Origin: Pseudomonadota bacterium
Lineage (GTDB): Bacteria > Campylobacterota > Campylobacteria > Campylobacterales > Sulfurimonadaceae
NCBI GenBank assembly: GCA_043797085.1
Contig: JAZDQA010000004.1
Span: forward strand, 1-64,000
Direction: 5' to 3'
DNA length: 64,000 nt
How positions within the stretch are numbered: position 1 is the first letter of the stretch; each line of letters starts with the position of its first letter. Positions 218 through 19,490 of the stretch are shown here, piece by piece. The position numbers were made by a program, and so were the translations under genes. The notes below the pieces were generated by a model, which worked only from the letters and a program-made list of their open reading frames with translations, did not search any database and was not told the origin of the DNA.

Positions 218-721
218 GGAAATATCCTCCTCTGATTGGGTCTTTTTTTTTAATATTTGGTGACAATGGTAAAAATCTGATCAAGATTTAGGATTGTTTG
301 ATAAAAAGAGACGATAGCTAATCACCACTCTTTATCAGGAAAAATTTGAGAACGTTCTCGGTTGCAACTGGTAAAAGTTTACAGTGTTTTAGAATTATGT
401 GCAAGGGCATAAAGTGCAAATTTATTCCCTTGAAATGGGAATTTGAAGAAGGTTGTGTTTATTTTTAAAGTGAAAAAATGGAGGCTTTTTTTTCGCAAAT
501 GTCAAGAGGAGAAAGGGAGAGTTTTACTTTAGGTAAGTGATGCAAAACAGTTGTTTTCGTACACTCTCCTTATCAATAAAATTTAAATTGTAAAACCAAT
601 ACAAGATACGATTTTGGTTCAATAAATTAATTAACATTTATCACATACTATGATGTTTTTTGATAGAATCAAATATAAATAGTGCTAAAAGCTGGTAAAA
701 CTAATGAATTGTATAGTTTAA

Positions 722-3700
722 ATGGGATCATCGGATATTCTCTTTATTGATCTCGAAGTTGGCGTTCATACTTATAAAATAGATTTAGTAGGTGCGTGGC
801 TTAATAATATTACCTATAATGGTAAAAGTGTCAATTATATACGAGAACTTTATTTCCAGTATAAGCCTCCGTATATTTGCGGTCATAACTTCATCAATCA
901 CGATAAAAAGTTTTTATTAGAAACTTCTTTCAACCCCATTTTTGATACCGCGAAGATAATTGATACTTTTTATGTATCAATGCTTGTTTATCCGGACAAG
1001 CTTTCCCATAAACTTTCTAAGCCGTACAAAACCGATGTACATATTCAAAATGATCCTTTTGGCGATTGTGTTGCAACAAAAGATCTTTTAGAATTGATGA
1101 TCGAGAGGTTTCGAACCTATGGTCCCTCAATGCAATCGCTTTTGAGCTCTTTACTCAGAAAAAATCCCTATTATGAGGCTTTCTTCGAATATCTTAATGT
1201 AGAGCCTCAGTATATTGACGTATATGAATTTTTTAGCACAAAGATTAAATGTTCTAAACAACGTTTTTTAGAGCTTTTAGATGAGTCTCCAGCAGAGATG
1301 GGAATCATTCTGGTTTACCTAATGACAAAAAAGCGCACTTCACTCTCTTATGCTGTTCTTCAAACATTCCCCAAAACGGTTCAATTGCTCAAAGATCTGC
1401 TTTATAATCAAGAATCAATCGATTTAATTCAGTTTGCCAACGATGAGTTTGGTCTTCCGGGATTTAGAGAATTCGAAGCCAGAGACAGTGGAAGCGATCT
1501 CTTTAGCCATGAATTAGAAAACATCTCACAGCTCCATATTATTGAATCTGCTCTCAGAGGGGAATCTCTTTTAGCCATTTTGCCTACGGGTGGAGGGAAA
1601 ACATTTGCCTTCCAGATGCCTGCACTGATTAAAGCTCAAGCCTATAAAGCACTTACTATTGTTATCTCTCCACTGCAAGCGTTGATGAAAAACCATGTTG
1701 AGAGTTTTCGAGAGAAGAATCAAAATTTCAAAGTTGCCGCTATTAGTGGTTATCTCAGCCCGATTGAGCGTCTTAACGCTATCGCAGAAGTAGAAAACGG
1801 CATTATCGATATTCTTTATTTAGCACCCGAGGCACTACGTTCCCACTCGATTTTCAATGCACTTAAAAAAAGAATTATTGAGCGGTTTGTTATCGACGAA
1901 GCACACTGTTTTTCCTCATGGGGGCATGACTTCCGGCACGATTACAAATACATCGCATCTTTTATCCGTGATCTGCAAACAAGCTCACCATTTCAAGGAA
2001 TCATCCCGGTTTCATGTCTGACGGCAACGGCTAAGCCTGAAGTGCTCGATGATATCAAACGCTATTTTTCGGATAGACTGGATCTTACACTATCGGAGTA
2101 TTTGGCTTCTGCTAAACGAACCAATTTACACTATAACGCAATCGAAGTCGCCGATGATAAAGATAAATATGAAACCCTTGTCAAAGAGATCAATCGAATC
2201 GGTAAAAAAGCAATTATTATCTATATTCCCCAAAATGCCCGCATGTGTAAAGATTTATGCGACAAACTTCTACAAGACACCCGAATTATTTCTATGGGGC
2301 TGGAAATTGAGCCATTTTATTCAAAAATAGACAGTGAGATTGATGATGGGAAGCGTCATGGACGGAATAAATCTGATATTTTGAATGACTTTATCGATGA
2401 CAAGATTGATATTGTTATTGCTACCACAGCGTTTGGAATGGGAATAGATAAACCTAATATTGAAGCAGTCATCCACTATGAAACATCCGATTCACTTGAG
2501 TCATATTTACAAGAGTCAGGACGGGGAGGGCGATCAGATACAATTGATGCTGAGTGTATCGTACTCTATGCAAATAAAGATTTCGACAAACTCTTTAATC
2601 AACAAAACCGCTCAAAAATCGAATATGCAGAGATCAACCGTATTCTCAAAGAGATCAAAAAAGAGAAACGTAATCCTGCTATCCTCTCCACAAAACAAAT
2701 TGCCGAAAAAGCGGGGATCGATACCGAAGATAGTTCCAAAGACTACGATGTAATGATTAAAACGGCACTTCTTGAACTCGAAGAAGCCGGAATCATTAAA
2801 CGAGGACGTAACACTACTAAAATTTATGCTACCTCGGTCAAAAAAGAGGAAAACACCAGCGCTATGGAGTATGTCCATAAAGTACTTGATCCGGATAAAG
2901 AGATTTTAGAGTTATATGATGAGATGATCAGGATTATGAGTGTCATCATAGGGCGTAGTAAGCTCGATCCTATTGAAGTGGATGATTTATCCGAACACTC
3001 CGGTGTTAAACGAAGCGATGTCCATAAAGTTCTCTACGCACTAGCAGAGTACGAACTTATCGCTATGGAAAACGATATTAGCGCACACATTACCAAAGGG
3101 GTTAAAAAAGAGCTGGAAGCTCATTTTGCATTTGAGAATAAACTCGTGGAATTTTTTAAATCTTTACCAGACTATCAAAGAGAGTTTCATTTACGGGACG
3201 TTAATGATATGTTGGGTGAAAAGACAAACCATATCCGTTTGTCCAAAAAAATTATACAAAGTTTTACTCATCTAGCAGCATTGGCAAAGAAAAAGTTCAA
3301 AGTCAAATTCAAAAAAGATTTTTGTCTCATTCTTGAAAAAGGGGATATGACTAAAATCGCAGAGTTGATTGCAATACGACAAAAGATTGCACGAGGAATC
3401 GTCGATACACTTCTGGAAAAACACAGTGGTAATAACGATGAAATCGAGTTTTCCTCAACAGAGCTCAAAAAAACAATCAGTGAAGTTTCTAAAATGAGTA
3501 TCGAAGGGTTTCATCACACTCTCGTTTATATGCATGACACTCTAAAAGAGTTCAAACTTCGTCGTGGAAGGCTGATCTATTATCAGGCGTTTGCTATCGA
3601 AAAAACTGGACGGATGAGTGAAGCAAAACCTTATCAAAAAATGAGGGATTATAATAATAGCTTGAAGCTTTATTATGAGCGAAAAACTGAAGCAATCCAT

Positions 3701-5617
3701 ATTCTCATGGCATTTTTCAAAAAGCTTCTAAAAGAGGGATGGGAGAGATGCGTTAAATTTGTTAGTGACTATTTCTCGATGGAATATAACGCTTTTAAAA
3801 AGCTTTATAAGTTTGATGAGAAGATGATCAAGCTTCCTCTAACTGAAGAGCGCTATCGAGAAATTATTGCAAATCTCAATGAAGAACAATCCAAAGTTTT
3901 TGAAGATAAAACCAATCGAGCTGTGATGGTACTTGCAGGTCCAGGAAGTGGTAAAACAAAAACACTTGTTCATAAAATAGCTTCACTTATTACATTGGAG
4001 AATCATAAACCGGATCATTTCCTCATGCTCACCCACGGCAGGGCAGCAGCCAATGAGTTTCGTACACGGCTATACAATCTAATCGGCGGGTTGGCATATG
4101 AAGTAGATATTATGACTTTTCATTCGTATGCTTTGCAGCTGATAGGGAAAAAAATATCGGATGAAAATCAGCTCTCCAATGCTATTTCTCTTGCAACTGA
4201 GGGGATAGCACGAGGAGAAATTGAGATACCGTTTAAGACGATGTTGATTCTTGATGAGTATCAGGATGTGAGTTTAAAAACATACCGATTCATAACGATG
4301 ATCTTCAAAAAAATGGAAGCGAACAAACGGATTATTGCAGTAGGAGATGATGATCAGTGCATCAACAATTTCGATGGCGATGATTGTGCAGATGTGACCT
4401 TTATGAAAGCGTTCGAGACAGAATTTAATGATAGTGCATCAGTAGAAGAAGAGGATGAAACTTCCGGTAATTTTGCACGCTATTCTCTACTAAATAACTA
4501 CCGAAGCAAGCACAATATCGTAACCTTTGCCAACACATTTGCTCGAACCATTCCCAATCGTCTTAAGCAGGATGATTTAATCGCAAATGATACGGGAAAT
4601 GGATATATTCAGATCGTAAATTATTCTCAGAACACTTCTATGATTGCAAATATAGCCAAAGCTATAGAAAACGATCCCTCTGAAAATATCGCGGTACTAT
4701 GCCGAACAAACAATGCTGTTTTGACCCTTTATTCTATTCTCAAAGCCAAAGAGATCAATGTTAAATACATTACCTCTAAAGACGGTTTTAGATTGGGTCA
4801 GCTTGTGGAGTTACAGGATTTTTTAGAACAGTGGAAAAAGTCATCGTATGTTGAAGCGGAAGATTGGATAAAACTACGCTATTCATCATCAGCAAATTAT
4901 CCACTTGCGCAAAAAGTGATTGAGCGGTTCATTAATGAAAATAATACGGAAAGCTTGGTACCTGAGTATTTAGCAGCGGCATTTGAAGAGTATCTCTATG
5001 ATATTGAGTTTGACGAATTTGAGTTTACCAAGGCAAAAGTGATTGTTTCTACGATGCACAAAGCAAAAGGGAAAGAGTTTGATAGTGTCTATGTAATGGT
5101 TGAAAACAACTTCATTCAGGATGACTATCAGCGTAGACTTTTGTATGTTGCCATAACTCGCGCCAAAGAAAACCTCTACATTCACACACAAGATCGATGC
5201 TTCAAACCAATGGAGCCTTTAGCTAACGAAGTTGTATCGGTGACGCAAATGGATGCTGAACCAGATAGCATCATTTTTACGATGGGATTGGGAGATCTGG
5301 CTCTTGCCAGTGACGCTGCTGCAAAAGGGATCAAATTATCCAATCCACAAGCTGGGGAAATGGTACGAATAGAGAAAGTAATGAATGAAGATGGATCGAT
5401 TTGGTTCAAACTCTCAAAAGATAGCAGAACAATATGCGTTCTTTCTAAACCTGATGGTGGAAAAAATCGCTTGAGTGATAAAATCCTCCAAAAAGAGTTG
5501 GAGGGTTATAGTCTTAGCCCAGATGTGACAATCGAATACATTGTCCGATGGAAAGAGACAATGGGTGACGAACGATATGATCAGGTTTTATGCAAGGTGT
5601 CAATGCAAAAGTCGTGA
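722..5617 (+). CDS. Large RecQ-family helicase fusion: N-terminal DEDD-like exonuclease domain, SF2 RecQ core, C-terminal SF1 UvrD-like helicase
   Basis: IDLE..GHN..D exonuclease-like motifs; RecQ motifs PTGGGKT, SPLQALM, DEAHCFSSWGHDFR, TATA, AFGMGID, QESGRGGR; second Walker A AGPGSGKT, DEYQD, VGDDDQ, NYRS, TMHKAKGKEFD, YVAITRAK. Confidence 0.88.
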   Translation: MGSSDILFIDLEVGVHTYKIDLVGAWLNNITYNGKSVNYIRELYFQYKPPYICGHNFINHDKKFLLETSFNPIFDTAKIIDTFYVSMLVYPDKLSHKLSKPYKTDVHIQNDPFGDCVATKDLLELMIERFRTYGPSMQSLLSSLLRKNPYYEAFFEYLNVEPQYIDVYEFFSTKIKCSKQRFLELLDESPAEMGIILVYLMTKKRTSLSYAVLQTFPKTVQLLKDLLYNQESIDLIQFANDEFGLPGFREFEARDSGSDLFSHELENISQLHIIESALRGESLLAILPTGGGKTFAFQMPALIKAQAYKALTIVISPLQALMKNHVESFREKNQNFKVAAISGYLSPIERLNAIAEVENGIIDILYLAPEALRSHSIFNALKKRIIERFVIDEAHCFSSWGHDFRHDYKYIASFIRDLQTSSPFQGIIPVSCLTATAKPEVLDDIKRYFSDRLDLTLSEYLASAKRTNLHYNAIEVADDKDKYETLVKEINRIGKKAIIIYIPQNARMCKDLCDKLLQDTRIISMGLEIEPFYSKIDSEIDDGKRHGRNKSDILNDFIDDKIDIVIATTAFGMGIDKPNIEAVIHYETSDSLESYLQESGRGGRSDTIDAECIVLYANKDFDKLFNQQNRSKIEYAEINRILKEIKKEKRNPAILSTKQIAEKAGIDTEDSSKDYDVMIKTALLELEEAGIIKRGRNTTKIYATSVKKEENTSAMEYVHKVLDPDKEILELYDEMIRIMSVIIGRSKLDPIEVDDLSEHSGVKRSDVHKVLYALAEYELIAMENDISAHITKGVKKELEAHFAFENKLVEFFKSLPDYQREFHLRDVNDMLGEKTNHIRLSKKIIQSFTHLAALAKKKFKVKFKKDFCLILEKGDMTKIAELIAIRQKIARGIVDTLLEKHSGNNDEIEFSSTELKKTISEVSKMSIEGFHHTLVYMHDTLKEFKLRRGRLIYYQAFAIEKTGRMSEAKPYQKMRDYNNSLKLYYERKTEAIHILMAFFKKLLKEGWERCVKFVSDYFSMEYNAFKKLYKFDEKMIKLPLTEERYREIIANLNEEQSKVFEDKTNRAVMVLAGPGSGKTKTLVHKIASLITLENHKPDHFLMLTHGRAAANEFRTRLYNLIGGLAYEVDIMTFHSYALQLIGKKISDENQLSNAISLATEGIARGEIEIPFKTMLILDEYQDVSLKTYRFITMIFKKMEANKRIIAVGDDDQCINNFDGDDCADVTFMKAFETEFNDSASVEEEDETSGNFARYSLLNNYRSKHNIVTFANTFARTIPNRLKQDDLIANDTGNGYIQIVNYSQNTSMIANIAKAIENDPSENIAVLCRTNNAVLTLYSILKAKEINVKYITSKDGFRLGQLVELQDFLEQWKKSSYVEAEDWIKLRYSSSANYPLAQKVIERFINENNTESLVPEYLAAAFEEYLYDIEFDEFEFTKAKVIVSTMHKAKGKEFDSVYVMVENNFIQDDYQRRLLYVAITRAKENLYIHTQDRCFKPMEPLANEVVSVTQMDAEPDSIIFTMGLGDLALASDAAAKGIKLSNPQAGEMVRIEKVMNEDGSIWFKLSKDSRTICVLSKPDGGKNRLSDKILQKELEGYSLSPDVTIEYIVRWKETMGDERYDQVLCKVSMQKS

Positions 5618-5623
5618 TCTTCG

Positions 5624-7096
5624 TTACAGTGCCATCAACGTTTGATACTCTTTAAGCGCATAATCGTCAGTCATTCCGCTGATATAATCAAGCAGGAGTC
5701 GGCAGCGATAATACCACTCCAACATTAGTCTTTCCTTATCGGTATATTCTTCCTTGATGGCTTCGACACTGACAGAATAGGCAACAATGTGTTTTTGAGA
5801 TAAACGACGAAAAAACTTGGAAGCCAGCCCATAATCGATTTGCTCATCTTTGAGTAATTTAGCCATATCATCAAATGGAACTTCGAGAATCGGTTTATAG
5901 AGGTTGAGGAGTCCTGATAGTATCGTATGCCCTTTGAGCTCTAGTGTCTCGACTTCGCGGTTATGGTAGATATGTTTCGTTGAGATATTTTGGAGGATTT
6001 TGAGAGCAATAAAATATTTGCTTTTTTTGTCAAATTCGAGAAGAGGATAATTGAATGTCCCATTAAAAATCGCTTCGTGGTTATCGATATAAACCTTAGT
6101 GACTTGAGCAACCAATTTCCCGATTAAAGCAGCGCGGATGGAGACGAGGAACATATTGAAACGGTATGGCTTCTCTTCACTCTTTTGTGCTTTGTCGTAC
6201 GCTCCTTGTACTAAATCAACGAGATAGGTTTCCTCGGTTCCGTACTTTTCATTCACCTTTGGCGATTCCGCCATAATCAGAGCGTAGATTTTGTCTAACG
6301 TAAGGATCTTTTTATCGACGGCATCTTCGAGATCGGCGGTAAGGTACGAGATATCATCCGCTGCTTCCATGACATAAGTGATCGGAAAGCGTGTGCCTTT
6401 AGACATTTCAAGAGCTTGGCATACCGTCTCGACAAACTCTTTTTCGGAATAGTAGTATCCCGGTTTCTTTTGGAGATAGGAGAGAGTGTCTGATATGTCC
6501 GGTTTGCTCTCGAAAGCTCCACGTGTGTATTTGAGGATTGCCGCTGTCTGGGTGTAGGATAAGTTGAGGCGTTGAAGTTTATGCACGATACGGATCGCCT
6601 GCGCATTGCCGTCGAAATTACTCAGGTCTTTGATGAGCATATCTCGAAACGGATGTACTGCTTCAGACATATTGGGATAGAGGGCATTTAAAATTGTGGG
6701 AGCCTCTTTTGCCATCCATGCATTGATTGATTCTTCAGCTGAGTGACCAAAAGGAGGATTGCCAATATCGTGTAACAGACTTGCCATCTCGGCAGTGGAA
6801 ACGAAAGCATTGTCCATCTCTTCCAATCCAAATGTTTCAGTTAGGTCTTGTTTTTTGATTTCGGAAAGGATACTTTTAGCGATATACCGGCTCGTCTGCT
6901 GTACTTCGAGTGAATGTGTTAGACGGCTACGGACTGCTGCATTGAGTTCGAGGGCGAATACCTGTGTTCTTTTTTGGAGCCGACGCAGAGCTGGGGCGGA
7001 GATGATACGACCACGGTCGCTCTCAACCGAACCATCAATATTAGGAATCTCATTCATCGCTCTGTGAATCGTCAGCTTTTTACGATAATCAATCAT
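5624..7096 (-). CDS. dgt: dGTP triphosphohydrolase (HD family, Dgt type); candidate anti-phage dGTPase
   Basis: RRLQKRTQVF, RSRLTHSLEV, LLHDIGNPPFGH, FDGNAQ, EAADDISY, DYISGMTD. Confidence 0.92.
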   Translation of the reverse strand: MIDYRKKLTIHRAMNEIPNIDGSVESDRGRIISAPALRRLQKRTQVFALELNAAVRSRLTHSLEVQQTSRYIAKSILSEIKKQDLTETFGLEEMDNAFVSTAEMASLLHDIGNPPFGHSAEESINAWMAKEAPTILNALYPNMSEAVHPFRDMLIKDLSNFDGNAQAIRIVHKLQRLNLSYTQTAAILKYTRGAFESKPDISDTLSYLQKKPGYYYSEKEFVETVCQALEMSKGTRFPITYVMEAADDISYLTADLEDAVDKKILTLDKIYALIMAESPKVNEKYGTEETYLVDLVQGAYDKAQKSEEKPYRFNMFLVSIRAALIGKLVAQVTKVYIDNHEAIFNGTFNYPLLEFDKKSKYFIALKILQNISTKHIYHNREVETLELKGHTILSGLLNLYKPILEVPFDDMAKLLKDEQIDYGLASKFFRRLSQKHIVAYSVSVEAIKEEYTDKERLMLEWYYRCRLLLDYISGMTDDYALKEYQTLMAL

Positions 7097-8576
7097 TTAG
7101 TACCTTTCTGAGTTTTTGATGCACTCTGACCATCGCCAGTGTATCGAGTTTGCAGTATTCTAGGAGAGCATGGCGGATACGCTCTTGCTCTACCTCTTCC
7201 ATCGTTGCAAGCTTGGCGTAGGCGTTCATCGCTTCACCGCCGTTTTGGACTCCGTCGAGCTCTTTATAGGCTTGTGCCATCTCTGGGACGAGGGCAGGGA
7301 GGACGTATTTGATCGAATAGCTTCCGTTCATGGATGGGGTGACGTAATGCCCCTTTTGAAACGGCACCATCAGATCACGGATATTGGGGATGATGCTTTT
7401 GAGGCGTTCGCTGAGATCGGGGAAGCTAAGGGCTAGTTTTTCAATCACTCCTTTCTCGAAGCTCATGTTATACGCCAGTACCGTGACGTTGTCGGGGATA
7501 TCATTGATCAGCTGTTGCGCCAATGCGTAGCGCGGATCGGCTCCTGCGGGTGCCAGAAACTCCCGATGCTCCAGCTCCCCGTTCGCGTGCTCGATATGGA
7601 GCGAATACTGAAACGGTATTTGCTGATAGGGGCTGATCCCGTTCCATTGTGGAACCGCCTGTTGAAACGTCTCGAAATCGAGATGGTAGATCGGATAGGT
7701 GAGGGTGGAGAGAAACTCACGGATTGCGTCACTGTCGATGTAGGTACGCTGGCTTTTCCAGTTATCGACTTTTTGCTGTTGGATGGCGGTCATTTTGTAG
7801 CTATCGGGAATATCCTCGATACGAACGATCCCTTGATTGTACAGTTCGATCTGATTCTTGCTCCCGAGGTTAAAGATATTAAAGACGGAGTAATCGGGGA
7901 TGATTCGCTGTACTTTCCAGCAGTAGTGCATCGCGTCGCACTCATAGGGGTTTTTGCAGTGCTTGCCGATCTCAATGGCGGGTTCGTTCTCTCTATCTGC
8001 GAGATATGTTTCAAACTCGGCCAGTTTGGCAGGGACACCGCTCATCAGCGCATCTACTGCACCGCTCACATCGGCGACGGTAAAGAGGGCGCTTAGATCG
8101 AGTTCATCGCCCCGAACGTAGGAGGTGTCGATATGGACGACATAGCAGTTGGTGACGGTATGCCCGAGGCTCTCGATGACATAGCGCTGTATCGAGACAT
8201 CGCGCAGATAGATCTCCTTGACCTCCGAGGAGCTTTTAACCTCGTATATCTCTACACCATTGGGAGTAACGCGGAGGACATCGACCATCACGACGATCCC
8301 CTCATGGATAAACGTTGCTTCATAGATATACTCTAACCCCTCATCCATCCGCTCTCGTGTCAGCTCCGCCATCCCTGTGAAGTTTTTCTCCATATAGGGG
8401 ATTTCACGACCGTTTGGGAAGAGGGCGCATGCCAGATCGCCGACGATATTTCCTGTCTCGAATCGTGCGAGGGCGGTGGCATCGGGTGGAGTCAGCACCT
8501 CTGGGCTTTGTTTTTTCAGCCAGAGGGATTTCGGGCACTGGATTCCGCGGGTGTAGAGGGATTTGGAGAGAAGCAT
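7089..8576 (-). CDS. DUF2779-type protein: Cas4/AddB-like PD-(D/E)XK nuclease plus RNase H-like DEDDy domain
   Basis: LSKS..GIQCPK.LWL N-terminus; EATF..VDVL..YEVKSS; Cys cluster HCKNPYECDAMHYC; LDFETF, AYNMSFE, YCKLD. Confidence 0.8.
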   Translation of the reverse strand: MLLSKSLYTRGIQCPKSLWLKKQSPEVLTPPDATALARFETGNIVGDLACALFPNGREIPYMEKNFTGMAELTRERMDEGLEYIYEATFIHEGIVVMVDVLRVTPNGVEIYEVKSSSEVKEIYLRDVSIQRYVIESLGHTVTNCYVVHIDTSYVRGDELDLSALFTVADVSGAVDALMSGVPAKLAEFETYLADRENEPAIEIGKHCKNPYECDAMHYCWKVQRIIPDYSVFNIFNLGSKNQIELYNQGIVRIEDIPDSYKMTAIQQQKVDNWKSQRTYIDSDAIREFLSTLTYPIYHLDFETFQQAVPQWNGISPYQQIPFQYSLHIEHANGELEHREFLAPAGADPRYALAQQLINDIPDNVTVLAYNMSFEKGVIEKLALSFPDLSERLKSIIPNIRDLMVPFQKGHYVTPSMNGSYSIKYVLPALVPEMAQAYKELDGVQNGGEAMNAYAKLATMEEVEQERIRHALLEYCKLDTLAMVRVHQKLRKVLND

Positions 8577-8585
8577 AATAAAAAT

Positions 8586-10724: not shown

Positions 10725-10897
10725 AATTATTTCTCTTTAACGATATTTTTTGTTTCAGACCGTGCGAGTGCTGTCGCATCGGGAATAGGGATTTAGAGAA
10801 GGTTATATTATTCTCAATAGTTTAAATTTGCTTGAGGTTCTTTATGAGCTAATACGAGGCTCTAAAATAGAGTTCGCATTTAACGCTCTTAACTTCT

Positions 10898-11107
10898 CTA
10901 TACCTTTGAGTATCTATAAGTGCCTTTAATTGCAGATGCTAAATACCCACCAACTGAAGCTGCATGTTCTAATTCATTAAATATTCTCTCTGGAACATCA
11001 AAATATTGGTATGTTCCACCGTTTTTGAACTCAACTTGCAATGTTGAACTCTCTGCATCATAACCAATTGCTTGAATATTACTTGAATCTACATGTTTCA
11101 TTTCCAT
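10898..11107 (-). CDS. KTSC domain protein
   Basis: VDSSNIQAIGYD..LQVEFKNGGTYQYFDVP..AASVGGY..IK signature; AAGGA RBS. Confidence 0.92.
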   Translation of the reverse strand: MEMKHVDSSNIQAIGYDAESSTLQVEFKNGGTYQYFDVPERIFNELEHAASVGGYLASAIKGTYRYSKV

Positions 11108-11120
11108 TATTTGTTCCTTA

Positions 11121-12995
11121 TCATTTTATTTTATCTATCCTAGGGTTTTGAGCCCGCCATGTTTCAATTAATTCTTCATAATGGGGATTATCCTCCATTT
11201 TGATGCCCCAACCACCAGGATTTTGTGAATCTTCTAAAGATATTTCATCATAGATTATAGGGTCTTGACTATCTGGTCTTCTATTTTTTGGTGGTGCTTC
11301 TATTGTAGTTCTCATTGGCAATTTAACTGCTTCACCCAAAATAATGGCTTCCCCCGTTCTTAAAATAGGTAGCATACCAGTTAGTCCATCTAAATTATCA
11401 GATAATGCAGATGTTATGTGATTTCTATCTGAGGCATTAGTTAGCCTGAGTGCGAAAAAAGTACCGCATTGTGAAAGAATTGTTGAATTGATTTCTGAGG
11501 GTCGTTGACTTACAATCATGGCACCAATACCATACTTTCTTCCTTCTTTAACAATACGTTGAACGACTTTTGAAGCCATTCCTTTGAAGTCATCATTTAG
11601 ATAGATATGCGCTTCTTCCATAACTACTAACAATGGTCTATGTCTACCGCCTTGAGATAAATTTCTAGCCCAAAATAAAGCCTCATACAATAGTCTAAGA
11701 AGAGCGCCTATTGTTGTTTGTAAAATATCTGCAGGCACTCCAGATAAATCTAGTATTGTGACTGGTCTGTCACTACCAATCCAGTTTTTCAGTAAGCAAT
11801 CTAGATCTTCTGCGACTTTTCCATCAGCTTCTGGCATCCAAGTATCGGGTTTAAAAATGAAGTCATATCTAGGAATTCTGAGCTTTGTGCCCAATAACAA
11901 AACCTGTTTTCCTATATTTAAAGAACCTGGTAAATAATTTACTTTCACATCCCCAGTTGCAGTTGCAATATTTTTAAAAATAGGTGGTATACCTTTTAGT
12001 GCATCTCCTTTTAACTCTTTGCCACTCGCATCCGTTTCATAAGCTAAATTATCAATTGGTCTACCAGTTTTATTACCACTGTAATATGTTCCAAACACTT
12101 CAACATATAATTCATACCATAGATTATGAAGACTGAATGGGATGGGTGAATCTACACTTAGTATGTCTATAGATACACCTTTTTTTGGGTATTTTTCCAA
12201 TGATTCAATTTTATATTTATGAACTCTCTCCATCACTATATTTTTATCTTTTTCACTACTAAAATCACCAAAGCTAATTTCGCATAATTCATCAAAGTTT
12301 AATGCCCAAAAGGGAATATGCAATACTTTTTCTTTTAATTTTGAGCCTCTATCTCCATTTATCTTATATATATTTGCTTTTTCCTGTAAAGCCTGCCCAT
12401 ACTCACCATGAAGGTCTAACATGATAATTCTTGCAGACGGATATTTATCACTGTCAGATAAGGCGTTAATAATACTTGATACTGTCGTAGATTTACCAGA
12501 ACCTGTTGTGCCGACAACTGCTGAATGCCGAGTAATAAGTTTATTTACATCGACCAATGCAGGAATTGAGTCTGCATTTGAAATGTGACCTAATTTTACA
12601 AAATACGGCTTATCAGGTTGCCCATAAATATTTTTCAGTTCTTTTTCTGATACTAAATGCACTTCATCCCCAATAGTTGGGTATTGGGAAAGTCCTCTTT
12701 GAAAGACTCCATTTCTTGGACCTTCGCCTATTAATTGAATTGTCATCCATCTATTGCCATGAAGCTGACTTTCAGCTTGTTTTGTAGGCACAGCACTCGC
12801 TCCAACCTGACTTATAATTCCAAATAAATCATGAAAGCCTATAGGTATTCTAATAAAGCTGCCTATTTGACCAACTCTATATCCTTGTCCATCGATGTAT
12901 ACAAAACCTGTTAATGATTCTTTTGACAAGGAAATACTGACAGTAGTTCCATTAACATCTTGCACATCGCCAAGATAGGTTTCTTTGCTAGACAT
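11121..12995 (-). CDS. herA: HerA/DUF87 ATPase (HerA of a SIR2-HerA anti-phage system)
   Basis: N-terminal HAS-barrel-like region, HSAVVGTTGSGKS, LDLHGEY, MEEAH, RIVKEGRKYG, SQRPSE; overlaps the SIR2 gene by 8 bp. Confidence 0.92.
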   Translation of the reverse strand: MSSKETYLGDVQDVNGTTVSISLSKESLTGFVYIDGQGYRVGQIGSFIRIPIGFHDLFGIISQVGASAVPTKQAESQLHGNRWMTIQLIGEGPRNGVFQRGLSQYPTIGDEVHLVSEKELKNIYGQPDKPYFVKLGHISNADSIPALVDVNKLITRHSAVVGTTGSGKSTTVSSIINALSDSDKYPSARIIMLDLHGEYGQALQEKANIYKINGDRGSKLKEKVLHIPFWALNFDELCEISFGDFSSEKDKNIVMERVHKYKIESLEKYPKKGVSIDILSVDSPIPFSLHNLWYELYVEVFGTYYSGNKTGRPIDNLAYETDASGKELKGDALKGIPPIFKNIATATGDVKVNYLPGSLNIGKQVLLLGTKLRIPRYDFIFKPDTWMPEADGKVAEDLDCLLKNWIGSDRPVTILDLSGVPADILQTTIGALLRLLYEALFWARNLSQGGRHRPLLVVMEEAHIYLNDDFKGMASKVVQRIVKEGRKYGIGAMIVSQRPSEINSTILSQCGTFFALRLTNASDRNHITSALSDNLDGLTGMLPILRTGEAIILGEAVKLPMRTTIEAPPKNRRPDSQDPIIYDEISLEDSQNPGGWGIKMEDNPHYEELIETWRAQNPRIDKIK

Positions 12996-14304
12996 TCTGT
13001 CCTTCCTTAGGCGTTCCTATTATTTTTTTTAGAAAATTTGTAAATATAGAAAAGTCTCCAAGCTTGACTAAATTTTCATGCTCATCTGAACCATCATTTT
13101 TTTTAACATTAGCAATGAAATTCATAATATCGATATCTTCTTCGCTAGTATTTAGAGACTTTTTCCAGTCACCTAAATTTGTTCCGATTATGGCTTTGTC
13201 AAATGTCCAAATATTAAGATTATGCTGATTATTAGCCAAGCGATATGCCTCATGATAACGTTCTATGACTTTGCAAAACTCATTCAATTGGTATTGATAA
13301 TCCATTAGTGCTAAATTTATTTTAGTTGCTGACCATTTTAATTTTCCAAATTTCAAATGAATATTATTATTAGCAAACATTGTATATTTTTCAAACATTA
13401 ATCCAAGCACCATTGCCGTTGGATTTGCCTTTAGTGCATTTATGATTGTGTCATTTAAATGACCGTCATTAAATGAATAGCCAGATAAAATCAATAAAGA
13501 TGATTTTTTGCGAATAAATCTACTTAATTGATCAATTAATGCTAAATATGGCATTTTCCGACTTTCTTCATATTTCAAATGAGAAGGATAAATCAAATGA
13601 GATGCACCTTCCTTGATCTCTGAGGAACGATACACTTTTTTTTGACCTTCAACTTCTTCTTGATACCAATTAATAGAACCGTGTATTTTCCATAATCTTG
13701 ACCAATGGATAGGTATTAAATTGTCTTCAAGTGCTCTAAGATCAAAAAATGATCTTCTTGCTCCGACAAAACCATCGAAATATGCGACTTCCAAGTCTTC
13801 AAGTGCTTGTTCCATTAATAAATCGTAATTTGTTGTAAATAATTCGACGGAGACTTTTCTGTCTATTGACCTTATCCATTTACATAGACGGTGGTATGGT
13901 GTCTCTTGATCTGGTAGGCCTACGTCTAGTTTTTCTACAATTTTTGCAGAAATGATTTGTTCCAAACCTTTTAAGTCAGTTTCAGAAAGTCCTCTTACTT
14001 CACCGCCCTTAGAAACCAATAATAAGCTACGAAGAAAACTTAAAATGTCTTCTATATTTTCTATATTTTTTTCTGCCTTTTTCAATTCAGCTAACAGTAT
14101 TGTATATTTAGCATTATCTGTTAATTGCTCATTAATAAACTTTGTAAGACCTGCAACATCAGGTATTAATGGCCATTGACCTTCTGGCATATTTACTGAT
14201 AAAGGGCATCCTGCTGATATGAAAAATCCAATAGACTCATTATCTTGTGACAATGACTGGCGAAGATACTTTAAATGTCGAATAGGATCATGGTAATTAT
14301 TCAT
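12988..14304 (-). CDS. SIR2-family NADase (SIR2 of a SIR2-HerA system)
   Basis: FFISAG, TTNYDLLME, YFDGF, KIHGSINW, GYSFND.HLN motifs; CAGGAG RBS. Confidence 0.9.
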   Translation of the reverse strand: MNNYHDPIRHLKYLRQSLSQDNESIGFFISAGCPLSVNMPEGQWPLIPDVAGLTKFINEQLTDNAKYTILLAELKKAEKNIENIEDILSFLRSLLLVSKGGEVRGLSETDLKGLEQIISAKIVEKLDVGLPDQETPYHRLCKWIRSIDRKVSVELFTTNYDLLMEQALEDLEVAYFDGFVGARRSFFDLRALEDNLIPIHWSRLWKIHGSINWYQEEVEGQKKVYRSSEIKEGASHLIYPSHLKYEESRKMPYLALIDQLSRFIRKKSSLLILSGYSFNDGHLNDTIINALKANPTAMVLGLMFEKYTMFANNNIHLKFGKLKWSATKINLALMDYQYQLNEFCKVIERYHEAYRLANNQHNLNIWTFDKAIIGTNLGDWKKSLNTSEEDIDIMNFIANVKKNDGSDEHENLVKLGDFSIFTNFLKKIIGTPKEGQNV

Positions 14305-14344
14305 TTGATACTCCTGTATTTACTAAACATGGTGCACTGTCCAT

Positions 14345-16702
14345 TTACAACTCCACCACTCTCTCAAACATCTCCTTAATCTCAGTTTCATGAGAGATTA
14401 AAAATATCTGCCGATACGATTCGCTGATCGTGTGAAACGCTTCCATGATCTGGATGCGCCGTTCCTCGTCTTGTGAACCGAATACCTCGTCAAATGCCAA
14501 AAACCCAATATTGCCGCCACCGCTAAGTTCCCCAAGTGTTTTGGAGATGGCGATGCGCAGGACAAGGTTGGCGAGATCGATCTCTCCGCCGCTGAACCGC
14601 TCGATCGGGTAGCGCTCGCCGTTGTCGTAGATGTAGAAATCGAACTCGGGGCTAACTTCGATGTGCTGATAGCGTCCACGGGTGATGCGGCTGTACATGT
14701 CGCTGGCGACTTCGCCGATGCGGGGGGCGACGCGGGCGTTGATATGGGTTTTGAACTCGGACATGACTGCTTTGAGTTTCTCGTAGTCGGCTTGGTCATT
14801 TTCACGGGTTTTGAGAGATTCCCGCTGGGTTTCGTCGCGTTTGATCTCTTTGTCGATCGCTTCGATGTCGCGGCGGATGTTGGTCTGCTCTAGCACTGCG
14901 GCGTTCAGCTCGACCCCTTTGGCATCTTTAGTAGTTTCAGAAAGTTTCGCGTGGGTGATCGCTTCGTTATGGGTTTCTATACGGTAGGTGTCGGCGGCGA
15001 TAAGGGCTTGGGTAGCGGCGACAGAGGCTTCATCCGCTTTGATCTGCGTTTGGAGAGCTTGTAGGGCTTCGGTTTTAGACGGGATGGTGGAGATGAGCGC
15101 TTCGAGTTTGATGAGGGCTTCGACCTGCGGTTTGAGAGATTGATACTGCTCTTTGAGGGTGTTATGAGCGTTTTCATCGTAGGTGATGCTCCCAAGTTCT
15201 GCAAGGGCGACTTTGTTACTCATCCCCCGCGTTTCGACCTCACGGAATAACTCTTGGGCTTTGAGGAGGTCTTTGGATTTGCTCTGGAGGAGGGCGATCT
15301 GTGTTTGCAGGGCATTGCATTTGAGCTGTGCTTCGTCGGTGATCTTTTGGGAAGAAGCTTTTTGCTCGTTCAGGACGTTAAGGCGAAGTTGCAGGGCATT
15401 GATCTGCTTTTGGTAGACCTCATTGATCTCAGTGTGAAGCGATGCGATGACACTGTCATACTGCTCTATCAACGGACGGGTGCAGGTGGGGCAGGAGGAT
15501 TCCCGTCCCAGATCGGTGATCGTTTCGACCTGTTTGGTCACTTTCGCGATATTGGAGCGGTTGGAGCCGATCTCAGAGGTGAGGGCAGTGATCTCGGTGT
15601 CGAGTTTGAGGAAGGCCGCTTTAAGCTCTGAGAGGGCGGTTTGATCGCTATGGAGCTGTTTTTGCAGATCTTCCAGTGGAGTGATCTCATTAGTTAGCTG
15701 TGCCACTTCTTCTTTGCGTGTAGTGTACCCTTTTCGCAACTCCTCTTGCTCTTTTTCTAATCCGACTTTTTGGAGGAATTTGGTTTTTAGTTCGTCTTGG
15801 GCTTTAAGCGATAGCTCCAACGTGGCGAGTTGCGCTTTGAGAGGAAGTTGCGCCGTGTAATGGCTCTGGTGGGCGTTGAGGGTTTTGAGCTCGGTTTCGA
15901 GTTCGACAAGCTGTTTTTGGTGGAGGGCGAGCGTCTGTTGCGCTTTTTCGAGTGCATCGAGTTTCTTTTGCCGCTCTTCTTTGGCTTTTTGGTGGGTCTC
16001 TACGAGTGCTTTGGCGGCTTCGTAGGCGGTTTTTAGCTTTAGGGATTCCTCGGTGAGGGTTTTGAGGGTCGCTTCGAGGGTTTGGGAGAGGGCGGTTTTA
16101 GTGCTTAGGTCGTCGCGGTGCTGTTTGAGAACGTCATCACCGAGAAGAAACCCCGAAGCATTTTTGATATCACGGTTCAGCTCTCGCAGCTCCTCTCTGA
16201 TCATCTCCTCGATTTTATCAATCTTCTCCAACCCAAGCAATCGGCGCATCATCGCCTTGCGTTCGTCATTTTTCATCGAGCTGAGTGCCGTGAGTTCCTT
16301 TTGGGAGGCGAATACGGTGTGTAAAAACGCCTCTTTCCCCATGCCGAGTAGTTTCGTGATCGATAACGTTACCTCTTTAGCACCGGTGGCAATATTCTCA
16401 TCCCCCTCTTTGAGAGTTGCATAGGCGGTGAGGGCTTTCCCCCGGAACTCACGGATAGCGGTGTAACTTTTTCCTTCGATCTCAAAGTTCAGCTCAACTT
16501 TGACGCTTCCATCACTTCCGGCTGTAGGGATTAATTTTTTATCTGTTCGGTTTTCCCCGTATAGAGCAAAGAATACCCCGTCGAATATCGTCGATTTTCC
16601 CCGTCCATTGCGTCCGAGTATTCCGCACAGACCGCTTTCGAAAGTGATCTCATACGAGGCGTAGCGTTTGAAGTTCTGGAGTTTCAGCGATTCAAGCGTC
16701 AT
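14345..16702 (-). CDS. sbcC: SbcC/Rad50-like SMC ATPase
   Basis: GRNGRGKST Walker A, coiled coil with CPTC zinc hook, FSGGE signature, FDEVFGSQD, ISHE; start moved to ATG 16702 (MTLESLKLQNF), overlapping the sbcD stop. Confidence 0.88.
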   Translation of the reverse strand: MTLESLKLQNFKRYASYEITFESGLCGILGRNGRGKSTIFDGVFFALYGENRTDKKLIPTAGSDGSVKVELNFEIEGKSYTAIREFRGKALTAYATLKEGDENIATGAKEVTLSITKLLGMGKEAFLHTVFASQKELTALSSMKNDERKAMMRRLLGLEKIDKIEEMIREELRELNRDIKNASGFLLGDDVLKQHRDDLSTKTALSQTLEATLKTLTEESLKLKTAYEAAKALVETHQKAKEERQKKLDALEKAQQTLALHQKQLVELETELKTLNAHQSHYTAQLPLKAQLATLELSLKAQDELKTKFLQKVGLEKEQEELRKGYTTRKEEVAQLTNEITPLEDLQKQLHSDQTALSELKAAFLKLDTEITALTSEIGSNRSNIAKVTKQVETITDLGRESSCPTCTRPLIEQYDSVIASLHTEINEVYQKQINALQLRLNVLNEQKASSQKITDEAQLKCNALQTQIALLQSKSKDLLKAQELFREVETRGMSNKVALAELGSITYDENAHNTLKEQYQSLKPQVEALIKLEALISTIPSKTEALQALQTQIKADEASVAATQALIAADTYRIETHNEAITHAKLSETTKDAKGVELNAAVLEQTNIRRDIEAIDKEIKRDETQRESLKTRENDQADYEKLKAVMSEFKTHINARVAPRIGEVASDMYSRITRGRYQHIEVSPEFDFYIYDNGERYPIERFSGGEIDLANLVLRIAISKTLGELSGGGNIGFLAFDEVFGSQDEERRIQIMEAFHTISESYRQIFLISHETEIKEMFERVVEL

Positions 16703-17822
16703 TGTTGACCTCGTCATAGCGTGCAAAGAGTGTTGCTACTTTGGAGTTTAGACGTGTGAACTCTTCGGGTGTGGTGGTTTGCTCTTCTAAAAACGCGCCG
16801 AAATACTCCTGTAACGAGGCGGCATTCACACTCTCCGTCGCGGCAGAGGCTTCACTGCGTCGAAATTTGCGCTGGATTTGGACATTTAGGGCGGTAGGAA
16901 AACACCCTTCGATATCTCGGTTGGCAATGTCGATGGATTGGGTGGCACTGAGGTTTTCGAGGGTGATGGAGAGGAGAGCACCATCAACGACTAACGATTC
17001 AGCGTGTGATCGGAGTTCATCGAAAATATCCTCTGAGGTTTGGGCATCGACACGGAGACGGTGGCTGGGACGGAGGGTGATGGGGTGGAATATCACTTCA
17101 AAAGAATCCCCTAATGTTACGAGGACATATCCTTTGTCATTGCGTGCATCACCGCTGCTGGTTCGCTCTGTCGATCCGGCATAGTAGACGTTAGGGTGTT
17201 TGCCGACACTCCCAAACCCGTGCCAGTGACCGAGGGCAACGTAATCAATTTTCTCAAACAGCTCCTCTTTCTCACGCGGATAAACCCGCTCACCGTACTC
17301 CTCCATCATAAACTGCGCCCCGACGGAGCAGTGGAGCATCATGATGTTATGTTTATCCTCATCTACCGAAGCTTCACATTCCTCAATCGCCGCGAGGTTG
17401 GAGAGTTCATCGTTGATATGGGGGATACAGTGGAAATTGATATCATCAAATATTACTTTCTCGTACGCCTCTTCAAACACGGGATAGATATGATCGAGTG
17501 TCCGTAATGCCGCGAGGATCGGGGAAGCCGAACGGGTACGAGGAGTAGAGTGGTTTCCCGCGATGATAATCGTCGGGATCTGAGCGACACTGAGACGTTT
17601 GAGCTGAGTCAGACAAAAGCTGATAGCACGGTTGGATGGGTGAGGGCGGTGGAAGAGGTCTCCGGTATGGATAACGTAATCAGGTTTAGTCTCGATTATC
17701 GCATCGATCACCTGAGTAAAAGCATCGTAAAAATCGGCTTCACGTTGGTTGATGCCGAATTCATTGACGATCTCAAGATCGTTACAACCAAGATGCGTGT
17801 CAGAGAAGTGGAGAATTCTCAA
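16692..17822 (-). CDS. sbcD: SbcD/Mre11-like metallophosphoesterase nuclease
   Basis: HFSDTHLG, TGDLFH, AGNHS, YVALGHWH, YAGSTER; TTG start with AAGG RBS. Confidence 0.9.
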   Translation of the reverse strand: MRILHFSDTHLGCNDLEIVNEFGINQREADFYDAFTQVIDAIIETKPDYVIHTGDLFHRPHPSNRAISFCLTQLKRLSVAQIPTIIIAGNHSTPRTRSASPILAALRTLDHIYPVFEEAYEKVIFDDINFHCIPHINDELSNLAAIEECEASVDEDKHNIMMLHCSVGAQFMMEEYGERVYPREKEELFEKIDYVALGHWHGFGSVGKHPNVYYAGSTERTSSGDARNDKGYVLVTLGDSFEVIFHPITLRPSHRLRVDAQTSEDIFDELRSHAESLVVDGALLSITLENLSATQSIDIANRDIEGCFPTALNVQIQRKFRRSEASAATESVNAASLQEYFGAFLEEQTTTPEEFTRLNSKVATLFARYDEVNNDA

Positions 17823-17948
17823 TGAATACCTTTTAAATGAAAAATATTATTTTACATACAATAGTTGTTTTTTACTTAAAAGATGGAATTGGTAGTATAT
17901 ATTTGATTACAATAGATATTTTTATTTTCAAATCATCAAGGAATTCAT

Positions 17949-19115
17949 ATGTCAATTTTTATTAATCGTGAACAGTTGTATCATCAAGTATGGAAAATTC
18001 CTATGACAAAACTCGCACCTTTATATAATCTCTCCAATTATGAGCTCAAAAAGATATGTGATCGTTTTCTGATTCCAACGCCTAAAGCTGGATATTGGGC
18101 AAAACTCTCTTTTGGAAAACCTGAAGATATCGTACCTTTGCCCAAATGGAAAATTTGTGTGCCGCGTAGCATTCAAAGAAAACCAAAAACAGGAACAATA
18201 GCTCCGCATTCAAAAATAATTGATTCACCTATCTCGACACTAGAATCCGTTAAAATAATTGAACTCACTCCTAGAAAAGTGGATCATGGCATTGTGGTCA
18301 AAAAAACTCTTATACATATGCACTCATTAATTGAAAAAACACAACAAGCACTAAAAAAATCCAAAGCAGGTGAACATGGTAGATTATATCCCGGAAGTGA
18401 TGGAATAGCTATACATGTATCTCGTGAAAATGTAAAACGGTCATTATTGATTATGGATGCTATTTTTAAATGGTTTGAGAGTCGAGGGTATAAAATAATA
18501 AAACCTTTTAGTAACGATTCAAGAACATTTTTAAGTGTTGATGGTATTGATATTGAGATTGAATTATTTGAAAAGTCAAATGTAACTGGAAAGGTCAAAA
18601 GTAATTGGGGGTATGAGTACAATCAATATACACCATCTGGAAATATTACACTACAAATTAAATCATATACATATGGAACTAATATACGCACTCATTGGTC
18701 AGATGGTAAAAGACGAAAGGTAGAAGATTTATTAAACAGTTTTATTGATAGTTTTTTTGAGATCGTTGACTGGAATAAACGAGAAAATGAGCGAAGAGAA
18801 CGTGACCGTTTGGAACGAGAAGCTAGACGAATTGAACAAATTTATCAAGAACAGTGCCATCAATATGAAAATGAGATGTTTAATAATTTGATCCAAGAAT
18901 CTAATAATTTGGCTATGAGTACAAAAATAAAAGAATATGTATTTGCTGTAGAACAAAAGGCTAAATATAACTATCAAGAGAAAAATTATCCTAAAGACCT
19001 ATCTGATTGGTTTGAATGGGCGAAAAAACAAGCTAATAAGATTGATCCTTTAAAAGATAAATGGCCATCCTACATTGCATCTATTGAAATGATTGATAAA
19101 TCTAAAATACGATGA
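17949..19115 (+). CDS. Hypothetical protein with HTH-like N-terminus, typical of mobile regions
   Basis: 388-aa ORF with AAGGA RBS; REQLY..VW..PM..LA..Y.LS..L.K.C..IP.P..GYW N-terminal pattern; AT-rich. Confidence 0.7.
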   Translation: MSIFINREQLYHQVWKIPMTKLAPLYNLSNYELKKICDRFLIPTPKAGYWAKLSFGKPEDIVPLPKWKICVPRSIQRKPKTGTIAPHSKIIDSPISTLESVKIIELTPRKVDHGIVVKKTLIHMHSLIEKTQQALKKSKAGEHGRLYPGSDGIAIHVSRENVKRSLLIMDAIFKWFESRGYKIIKPFSNDSRTFLSVDGIDIEIELFEKSNVTGKVKSNWGYEYNQYTPSGNITLQIKSYTYGTNIRTHWSDGKRRKVEDLLNSFIDSFFEIVDWNKRENERRERDRLEREARRIEQIYQEQCHQYENEMFNNLIQESNNLAMSTKIKEYVFAVEQKAKYNYQEKNYPKDLSDWFEWAKKQANKIDPLKDKWPSYIASIEMIDKSKIR

Positions 19116-19211
19116 GAGTAAATTGTGACATAGATCAAACAGCAAGATAAGTGAGATAGGTCTGATAAGTTAAAAATGATAGGAGAGTTAGAATCAAGAT
19201 TGATAGTGAAT

Positions 19212-19288
<77 letters not shown>

Positions 19289-19404: not shown

Positions 19405-19481
<77 letters not shown>

Positions 19482-19490
19482 GTATAAAAG

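Follow-up and report, generated by a model that had tools for sequence, protein, structure and literature searches.

Several described systems resemble parts of the locus reported here. Hotspots with conserved markers in Pseudomonas aeruginosa (PMC10250203), Escherichia coli (PMC10121019) and P2/P4 (PMC9122126) pair fixed flanks with anti-phage cargo that is specific to each genome, insofar as the available parts of these papers describe them. Islands that carry a tyrosine integrase and sit in tRNA genes combine an intact tRNA, a displaced copy of its 3ʹ end, the integrase and an odd base composition, and they are absent from relatives. The locus in question fills positions 1–19211 of the window, meaning the whole 64-kb stretch that was analyzed, which opens contig C4 (JAZDQA010000004.1) of a 2.40-Mb, 14-contig draft genome from the Sulfurimonadaceae (GCA_043797085.1). 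This genome is labeled G000 and C3, C4 and C9 are contigs of it; other genomes compared with it carry G numbers, and loci fetched from them L numbers. Judging from sequence comparison, positions 1–19211 are very probably the tRNA-proximal part of an island of at least 35 kb in tRNA-fMet, whose core would be a defense hotspot shared across the Campylobacterales. Like the hotspots above, the site has fixed flanks and genome-specific anti-phage cargo. Unlike them, again as far as the available text goes, its flanks are accessory nuclease genes (sbcDC and DUF2779) and not core or phage genes, its cargo is co-directional and abuts the stop and start codons of the flanks, and it spans many genera of one order.

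At the core of the locus is a set of genes, termed here the frame, in the order sbcD-sbcC, slot, DUF2779, sometimes a second slot, and dGTPase; the slot extends from the sbcC stop to the DUF2779 start. Of the 26 complete frames that were read, 7 belong to the genus and the other 19 to further genera of the Campylobacterales. Within the genus, sbcC and DUF2779 share one contig and strand in 8 genomes, with a gap of 0.04–8 kb. The set from other genera consists of 19 places (16 genomes) where SbcC and DUF2779 matches lie at most 10 kb apart, and every one of them reads sbcD-sbcC, then 1.6–9.6 kb, then DUF2779. Nucleotide homology to the window begins at about 17880–17940, breaks off at the sbcC stop (14345) and picks up again at precisely the DUF2779 ATG (8576), to end at the dGTPase stop (5624). 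The first cargo open reading frame (ORF) starts no more than 40 nucleotides (nt) past the sbcC stop in 19 of the 26 frames, the distance from the last one to the DUF2779 start is at most 20 nt in 23 of them, and cargo ORFs are co-directional almost throughout (60/62 in other genera, 23/23 in the genus). G+C content (GC) marks the same division: slot GC, at 0.24–0.39, is below frame GC at every locus in the genus and beyond it, and the seven genus loci have frames of 0.49–0.57 around slots of 0.26–0.33.

The right end of the frame is less uniform. dGTPase directly follows DUF2779 at 7 Sulfuricurvum loci and at 4 of the 19 loci of other genera; a Mokosh-like helicase lies between the two genes in G007 and a RecQ-UvrD homolog in G045, while in G037 a Mokosh-like helicase follows DUF2779 and no dGTPase was found. 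Three genomes (G247, G340 and G229) hold two complete frames, each with different cargo; those of G247 lie on its contig C1 at about 411–420 kb (L152) and 1467–1474 kb (L151). The flanks are not core genes: of 401 Campylobacterales genomes, 66 (in 27 of 96 genera) encode an SbcC-like protein and 97 encode DUF2779. A homologous SbcD/SMC pair is located on an Arcobacter plasmid among defense-like genes. In a metagenome-assembled genome (MAG) of the Desulfuromonadaceae (L124, 9986–18341), DUF2779, a 510-amino-acid (aa) gene, SIR2, HerA and an Mre11/SbcD-like gene run in one direction in another order. In the accessible parts of the literature, no description was found of the frame, of the three-gene SIR2-HerA-KTSC unit treated below or of the fused RecQ-UvrD helicase as a defense gene.

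The cargo is rich in known or candidate defense genes and stands between the same flanks across the 26 frames; the site is a hotspot with conserved flanks. In slots of the genus, PADLOC identifies Hachiman, Gabija, PDC-S37/Hhe, AriA-like, Ppl-like, Borvo, Tmn and PDC-S05/S15/S22/S23/S31 (contents by genome in the Table). In other genera, 15 of the 19 slots have PADLOC matches at E ≤ 1e-15, comprising Gabija four times (one broken), Lamassu three times, Old/AriA-like genes three times, Ppl twice, a DRT UG6 set, Mokosh, PDC-S06, and PDC-S53 with PDC-S15. A gene pair of 115 aa and 581–587 aa adjoins DUF2779 in L048 (oriented, 10217–12324) and L054 (10418–12507); it has no Pfam or PADLOC match and is a candidate two-gene defense system. 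In G046 (L047, oriented 9610–11916), the N-terminus of DUF2779 carries a fused DUF676/PGAP1-like esterase domain, giving a protein of 768 aa.

Scars at the junctions bear on how cargo is exchanged. Deletions of sbcDC are frequent and precise; they keep the putative sbcD promoter, the first 24–29 codons of sbcD and the last 25–45 codons of sbcC (80–135 nt); the region upstream of sbcD survives beside such scars in G002 and G011, and an RmuC gene replaces sbcDC in G070 and G015. Additionally, a copy of the last 80–135 nt of sbcC stands behind each single-gene RhuM/Bro-N, ORF6N or RhuM-Fic cassette. Four of these copies share one left border, the left borders otherwise varying, and Campbell-type insertion of circular cassettes would fit them. 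An integron-like attC site in the repeated sbcC 3ʹ end was considered and finds no support, as the repeat folds no better than shuffled sequences (z = -1.1) and its left borders vary. A further reading takes sbcDC-slot-DUF2779(-dgt) for a functional super-operon, as opposed to a passive landing pad, in which the Mre11/Rad50-like and Cas4-like/exonuclease proteins would work with any cargo present, for example by making or degrading the kind of DNA ends that many of the cargo systems may sense, or would help to capture it. Cassette entry by Campbell recombination via the 80–135-nt sbcC 3ʹ end would then account for both the codon-exact junctions and the sbcC 3ʹ copies; we regard this reading as unlikely.

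The frame proteins themselves belong to recognizable nuclease and nucleotidase families. The closest solved relatives of SbcD are Mre11 3auz and 4tug (68 bits), and the motifs DTH, GDLFH and GNH are present. SbcC, encoded by a gene overlapping sbcD, has Walker A, a coiled coil with a central CPTC zinc hook, an SGGE signature and Walker B. NCBIfam cut-offs for SbcC, SbcD, Rad50 and Mre11 are not reached (best TIGR00619, 77.3 vs 77.65; NF003034, 151 vs 700), and both proteins score best against archaeal Mre11/Rad50 models. The archaeal herA-mre11-rad50-nurA operon, in the parts of PMC5715905 and PMC3326311 available, likewise groups Mre11-like, Rad50-like and HerA proteins with a nuclease in one co-directional cluster. 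It differs in that HerA here is swappable SIR2-HerA cargo and the nuclease is DUF2779 instead of NurA.

The DUF2779 protein fits a Cas4-like PD-(D/E)XK nuclease with four cysteines joined to a DEDDy-type 3ʹ to 5ʹ exonuclease domain, a predicted architecture for which PMC13621843 and PMC3985635 provide the background in their accessible parts. Residues invariant among 29 sequences are all present here (D99, E112, K114, Q130, C14, C207, C213 and C219, along with D300, E302, D401, Y474 and D478). The family is large (2809 clusters at E ≤ 1e-30), and its profile matched none of the solved structures. The dGTPase, an HD-domain protein, passes NF003429 (E. coli-type Dgt; 556.7 vs 405) and TIGR01353 (332 vs 152), scores 207.9 bits against the PADLOC dGTPase model and has 4x9e as best solved relative (402 bits, full length). 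It stays under the curated anti-phage models NF041026 (171.4 vs 400) and NF003701 (142.9 vs 383). Anti-phage dGTPases, reportedly described by Tal et al. in 2022, are HD-domain dGTP triphosphohydrolases, as are E. coli Dgt and the protein of the window; the latter differs from the anti-phage enzymes in being of the Dgt type and, as a frame member, in its translational coupling to DUF2779.

That the locus is accessory is evident by its composition and distribution. A first-pass annotation of the window had described ten consecutive accessory genes running up to the CCA end of tRNA-fMet, with abrupt switches of base composition between blocks, and both statements hold. Ten ORFs occupy 722–19115, the last ending 96 nt short of the tRNA-Met(CAT) 3ʹ end, placed at 19212 by ARAGORN and Rfam. 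In 600-nt windows, GC is 0.25–0.27 at 8.8–10.6 kb, 0.30–0.37 at 11–14.2 kb and 0.50–0.54 at 7.2–8.6 and 14.4–17.8 kb, against 0.398–0.419 for the contigs of the genome, and the switches coincide with gene borders. All eight congeners examined retain tRNA-Gln/tRNA-fMet/ribBA, and none has a homolog of any of the ten proteins in the 18–20 kb past the tRNA (tblastn, E ≤ 1e-5); two of the eight carry other islands there, with Type I restriction–modification (R-M) systems and integrases. G067, which has a frame at the same tRNA/ribBA locus, and G002, which has a frame remnant behind a different 23.8-kb island, are exceptions. Among 61 genomes of the genus, 18 have an SbcC-like protein (12 full length), 17 have DUF2779 and 5 have RecQ-UvrD. 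G000 contains no second SbcC, SbcD, dGTPase or DUF2779. It is hardly credible, then, that these are core, syntenic housekeeping genes and that the composition jumps are noise. RecQ, UvrD, SbcCD and Dgt are housekeeping family names, but the absence of these genes from the site in the eight congeners, tallies of 5–18 in 61, a GC range of 0.25–0.54 around a contig value of 0.40 and the separate RecQ-like and UvrD-like genes elsewhere in the genome all speak against that view.

The tRNA site bears the marks of integration. In the tRNA-Met(CAT), C1 and A72 are mismatched and the anticodon stem has GGG/CCC, which we take to be marks of an initiator. One compensatory pair in that stem sets the island-proximal copy apart from the second copy. 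A 50/50-nt exact copy of tRNA positions 28–77, identical to the second copy, lies at C3:16249–16298 and is the sole displaced tRNA fragment in the assembly; 81 nt from it starts a 442-aa tyrosine integrase gene (C3:14840–16168; Phage_integrase, E = 1.1e-15). An altered proximal copy and a displaced fragment of the second type fit a tRNA whose 3ʹ part has been exchanged for element DNA. A compensatory anticodon-stem change, at the neighboring pair, is also seen in the proximal tRNA-fMet of G002 (L014, 18497–18573), as expected if the 3ʹ part is element-derived. The integrase and tRNA 3ʹ repeat proposed in the first-pass annotation are thus both present, on contig C3 and not in the window, and together they would make the island at least 35 kb long. 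With this pair, the full-length PADLOC matches of SIR2 and HerA and a locus that varies among relatives instead of being syntenic in all of them, the description as a mosaic defense island at tRNA-fMet is borne out.

Compared with other tRNA-integrated islands, this one would have its integrase at the distal (repeat) end and be split over two contigs. The distal placement recurs on a single contig of G014, where tRNA-fMet is followed by 24.7 kb, an integrase homolog (33% identity by tblastn, 35% in another comparison) and, 156 nt away, a 47-nt repeat; a 47-nt repeat also lies 23.8 kb from the tRNA in G002. On C3:1–16248 there are also an AAA_25/primase-helicase-like gene and a Type I R-M system, the latter enclosing two further genes. 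The R-M region (L001, 1686–11671) reads hsdM-hsdS, a 320-aa gene of no known family, a 596-aa gene with Schlafen/AlbA_2 and HATPase_c_4 domains, and hsdR, followed by a YgjP-like metallopeptidase, and a set resembling this operon is found near the right end of C9. Within the window, repeats are limited to the tRNA duplication and the Rfam scan returned tRNAs only; the ORF at the contig start (2–217, minus strand) has no PHROG match.

The contig ends deserve attention. C4:1–370 is 96% identical to the outward-reading right end of C9, and the gene begun at 217 finds a 96% twin there; the assembly therefore stopped at a repeat. C3:1–140 is an insertion sequence (IS)-like end that recurs at four other places, on C5, C11, C2 and C6. 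Attempts to join C4 to C3 or C9 by end overlaps failed, and G055, whose RecQ-UvrD is 94% identical, has a left flank different from that of the window. A draft of 14 contigs and a window that begins at a contig end inside a repeat could suggest that the mosaic is an assembly or binning chimera. This is highly improbable, since a GC-rich frame with AT-rich cargo and the same junctions occurs in 25 other frames, several of them in single-contig genomes.

Several observations weigh against an island with a Campylobacterales-wide defense hotspot at its core. The ends of C4 and C3 do not overlap, and both are repeats. Promoter- and terminator-like sites are not above the shuffled expectation, leaving co-transcription unsupported either way. 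In four genomes, sbcC and DUF2779 share a contig at a distance of more than 200 kb (seven further genomes, with the matches on different contigs, are uninformative). Four of the 19 slots in other genera (L152, L158, L161 and L168) have no PADLOC match at E ≤ 1e-15, L161 having been scanned in part, and SIR2, HerA and dGTPase all fall under the curated anti-phage cut-offs of NCBI. Bacteria-wide, sbcDC lies upstream in only 4 of 80 DUF2779 loci, many of which are short; these four are one Sulfuricurvum, one Sulfurovum and two Acutalibacteraceae loci, the last two with canonical SbcCD, and this linkage fits a repair role as well as defense. Finally, G002 has its frame remnant beyond the limits of the att-bounded island, which allows frame and integrase element to be separate units.

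This last point leads to a tandem or composite arrangement, in which the frame block is an older resident and the C3 block of integrase and Type I R-M is a separate element sharing the tRNA site. The remnant of G002 lies beyond the displaced tRNA fragment, G014 has an integrase island of similar make-up without a frame, and G066 and G070 have other integrases beside their frames, all as such an arrangement would have it. Nevertheless, the assembly has just one displaced tRNA fragment, of the host type, and no internal tRNA fragment of 12 nt or more was found in C4:1–19211 or in C3:1–16248. We consider two elements a real but lesser possibility.

A second alternative concerns function. The frame (sbcDC, DUF2779 and dgt) could be an accessory operon for DNA repair and nucleotide housekeeping that plays no part in immunity and serves only as a tolerated landing pad for cargo, a reading that is quite plausible while falling short of even chances. 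All Rad50/Mre11 motifs and the zinc hook are intact in SbcC and SbcD, NCBIfam places the dGTPase with the housekeeping Dgt of E. coli, and in the two Acutalibacteraceae MAGs canonical sbcDC is followed by DUF2779 with no sign of defense cargo. Moreover, frame GC tracks host GC in other genera, as would be expected of long-resident genes. However, the frame is patchy (66/401 and 97/401) and has been repeatedly deleted or replaced, for example by RmuC; it also occurs on a plasmid among defense-like genes and is tied to a dGTPase or RecQ-UvrD with defense relatives. An attack on foreign DNA by sbcDC and DUF2779 and a role confined to repair of host DNA are about equally likely, neither quite reaching an even chance by itself.

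Under the reading of a tRNA-fMet island with a defense hotspot at its core, a tyrosine recombinase would have integrated the island into the 3ʹ part of tRNA-fMet, and unrelated anti-phage systems would be swapped in the slot between genomes by homologous recombination inside sbcC and DUF2779. Cargo would be read through from the frame promoter and co-transcribed with the frame. The SIR2-HerA-KTSC proteins may act by abortive infection through NAD+ depletion gated by the HerA ATPase/nickase, following the available portions of the SIR2-HerA literature, and the Cap4-TPR protein may be a sensor-nuclease that cuts DNA once its TPR part meets a trigger. The frame nucleases would act on foreign DNA ends and the dGTPase would lower the dGTP pool. 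RecQ-UvrD stands outside the frame, and the Type I R-M system on C3 would be part of the island.

The first cargo of the slot is a SIR2-HerA pair with a third gene. The described anti-phage system (PMC11472057 and PMC13434337, in the parts available) likewise has adjacent, overlapping SIR2 and HerA genes; in the window, the SIR2 stop overlaps the HerA start by 8 nt and both proteins match PADLOC models over their full length. The clade of the window differs in having a conserved third gene, KTSC, and in missing the NCBIfam anti-phage equivalogs (SIR2_antiphage, 59.6 vs 500; HerA_antiphage_2, 239.4 vs 850). KTSC follows HerA in all SIR2-HerA cargos of the genus (G037, G036 and G070) and in one Sulfurimonas MAG, copies whose identity to those of the window is 29–34% for SIR2, 38–40% for HerA and 44–47% for KTSC. 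On plasmids, it lies directly downstream of HerA in 14 of 14 loci checked, namely the 13 best HerA matches (H6–H18, KTSC by match) and one Citrobacter locus by annotation. This conservation defines a three-gene unit in Alpha-, Gamma- and Epsilonproteobacteria, and the constant linkage places KTSC within SIR2-HerA of this clade and not in a system of its own. KTSC has 0 occurrences in the available text of PMC13434337, a 2026 classification of E. coli Sir2-HerA; the sole link found in the literature is a single remark tying HerA-like ATPases to KTSC, in the accessible part of PMC9503650.

The second cargo is a nuclease-TPR gene. Scanned alone, residues 1–300 of its product reach 28.1 bits against Cap4_nuclease (cut-off 26.2), PADLOC LmuA matches residues 11–421 with 39 bits, and the remainder matches TPR families. 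A stored Atlas model of residues 12–264 aligns to a Cap4_nuclease cluster (TM 0.61/0.71) and also to clusters of ABC-three-component effectors. The protein resembles LmuA of Lamassu and ABC-three-component systems in that its N-terminal 260–420 residues match Cap4_nuclease and LmuA, in sequence and stored model. It differs in having no adjacent LmuB/LmuC (its neighbors are KTSC and DUF2779), in being encoded by a lone gene behind SIR2-HerA-KTSC and in a C-terminal part made of TPR and a 180-aa domain of no known family. A split Lamassu formed with SbcC was rejected on account of the 3.6-kb distance, the different GC of sbcC, and the Mre11 partner and zinc hook that SbcC already possesses. Relatives are few: three homologous clusters (62–76% identity) in a large protein collection, in a search crowded by TPR words, none in the metagenome scan, and the N-terminal domain in 0 of 400 other Campylobacterales genomes (1/401 counting the window's own). 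D44, E48, E50-D52, Q67 and K69 are invariant in four sequences. The protein clusters P0122 (76%-identical nuclease-TPR) and P0295 (86%-identical, truncated 388-aa homolog) both have a longest contig of 13,406 bases, which hints at the same arrangement in an independent metagenome. By its place in the slot, the gene is a good candidate for a defense gene.

Outside the frame, the fused helicase RecQ-UvrD has a conserved N-terminal domain (about 1–260), a RecQ-like SF2 part (261–650), a winged-helix region, a UvrD-like SF1 part (1047–1495) and a C-terminal tail. It passes TIGR00614 recQ_fam (230.8 vs 219.8 bits), remains below the RecQ equivalog (248 vs 640) and is far under the UvrD cut-off; at least 120 full-length cluster representatives (40–93% identity) exist, called 'RecQ family helicase' by their sources. 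A homolog directly follows DUF2779 in G045 and G380, and in the window the gene is convergent to dGTPase; the G003 copy is a lone insertion flanked by core-like genes. By this recurrence beside the frame, it too is a good candidate for a defense gene. No family was found for its N- and C-terminal domains. Invariant D10, E12, H55, N56, D61 and D115 allow the weak guess of a DnaQ-like exonuclease at the N-terminus, which neither Pfam nor a sequence search of the PDB nor an hhalign comparison with the DUF2779 exonuclease backed. The 388-aa protein between sbcD and the tRNA has no Pfam, PADLOC, NCBIfam or PHROG match; it has 20 homologous clusters, and a 62%-identical copy occupies the same place beside sbcD in G066. 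The uncharacterized members had been put forward as candidate new defense components, and the dGTPase as an anti-phage module. That proposal stands for nuclease-TPR, in the slot, and for RecQ-UvrD; KTSC turned out to be the third gene of SIR2-HerA, and SbcCD and DUF2779 are frame and not cargo. The dGTPase keeps its family assignment, whereas it misses the curated anti-phage models and is likewise a frame member.

Table. Features of the window and of loci compared with it (nt positions; G000 contig C4 unless a locus is named)
Feature	Position	Strand	Remarks
Contig start	1–721		5ʹ part of ORF 2–217(-) running off the contig, then AT-rich spacer
RecQ-UvrD fused helicase, 1631 aa	722–5617	+	Pfam DEAD, Helicase_C, UvrD-helicase, UvrD_C
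dGTP triphosphohydrolase, E. coli Dgt type, last frame gene	5624–7096	-	start overlaps DUF2779 stop by 8 nt
DUF2779 protein, slot right wall	7089–8576	-	PF11074, 160.8 bits vs gathering 23.3
Cap4/LmuA-like nuclease + TPR + C-domain of no known family, 712 aa	8586–10724	-	slot cargo, GC ~26%
KTSC-domain protein, 69 aa	10898–11107	-	PF13619, 85.2 bits; 13 nt after HerA
HerA-type ATPase	11121–12995	-	PADLOC HerA PDLC04105, 548.8 bits, residues 3–617; Pfam DUF87 + HerA_C
SIR2-family protein (SIR2_2)	12988–14304	-	PADLOC SIR2 PDLC04093, 504.9 bits, residues 1–433; Pfam SIR2_2
Short SbcC/Rad50-like ABC ATPase, 785–793 aa, slot left wall	14345–16726	-	assigned by domains and motifs
SbcD/Mre11-like phosphoesterase, first frame gene	16692–17822	-	Metallophos
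Divergent intergenic region upstream of sbcD	17823–17948		conserved with frame in relatives
388-aa protein of no known family, between sbcD and tRNA	17949–19115	+	no family match
tRNA-fMet, island-proximal copy	19212–19288	-	CCA end at 19212; 3ʹ end is the putative island border, attL side
Second tRNA-fMet (19405–19481) and tRNA-Gln (19491–19565)	19405–19565	-	conserved core flank with ribBA
ribBA	19725–20762	+	conserved core flank
G037 slot			SIR2-HerA-KTSC + FRG-domain genes
G036 slot			RhuM-Fic, SIR2-HerA-KTSC, DUF2971; also Borvo
G070 slot			SIR2-HerA-KTSC + 115 + 581-aa pair of no known family
G033 slot			same 115 + ~585-aa pair, with KilA-N
G066 slot			MBL + Hachiman
G065 slot			Gabija + PDC-S37/Hhe
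G067 slot			AriA-like ATPase + 430-aa protein
G051, G007 slots			Ppl-like proteins
G002 slot			Tmn
G046 slot			no cargo, 42 nt long
sbcDC-loss loci	L054 4854–7041; L142 6511–8540; L055 5761–6036 (oriented); L143 3376–3584		
sbcC 3ʹ-end copies	L049 9664–9794, 10670–10772; L050 5312–5387, 6403–6534		oriented
sbcC 3ʹ-end copies	L051 9400–9528 (oriented); L143 4097–4219 (as fetched)		

A defense island in a tRNA gene is ordinary; the useful point is that a frame of accessory nuclease modules marks, across the Campylobacterales, a slot whose immune system changes with nearly every genome. The slot provides a search key for new immune systems, and the four PADLOC-negative slots among 19, the pair of 115 and ~585 aa and the Cap4-TPR gene are what it points to. 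By the KTSC result, the whole SIR2-HerA clade represented in the window consists of three genes and includes an uncharacterized component; plasmid copies of E. coli, Klebsiella and Citrobacter belong to it. Furthermore, the codon-exact borders of the cargo pose a mechanistic question: how defense genes are exchanged.

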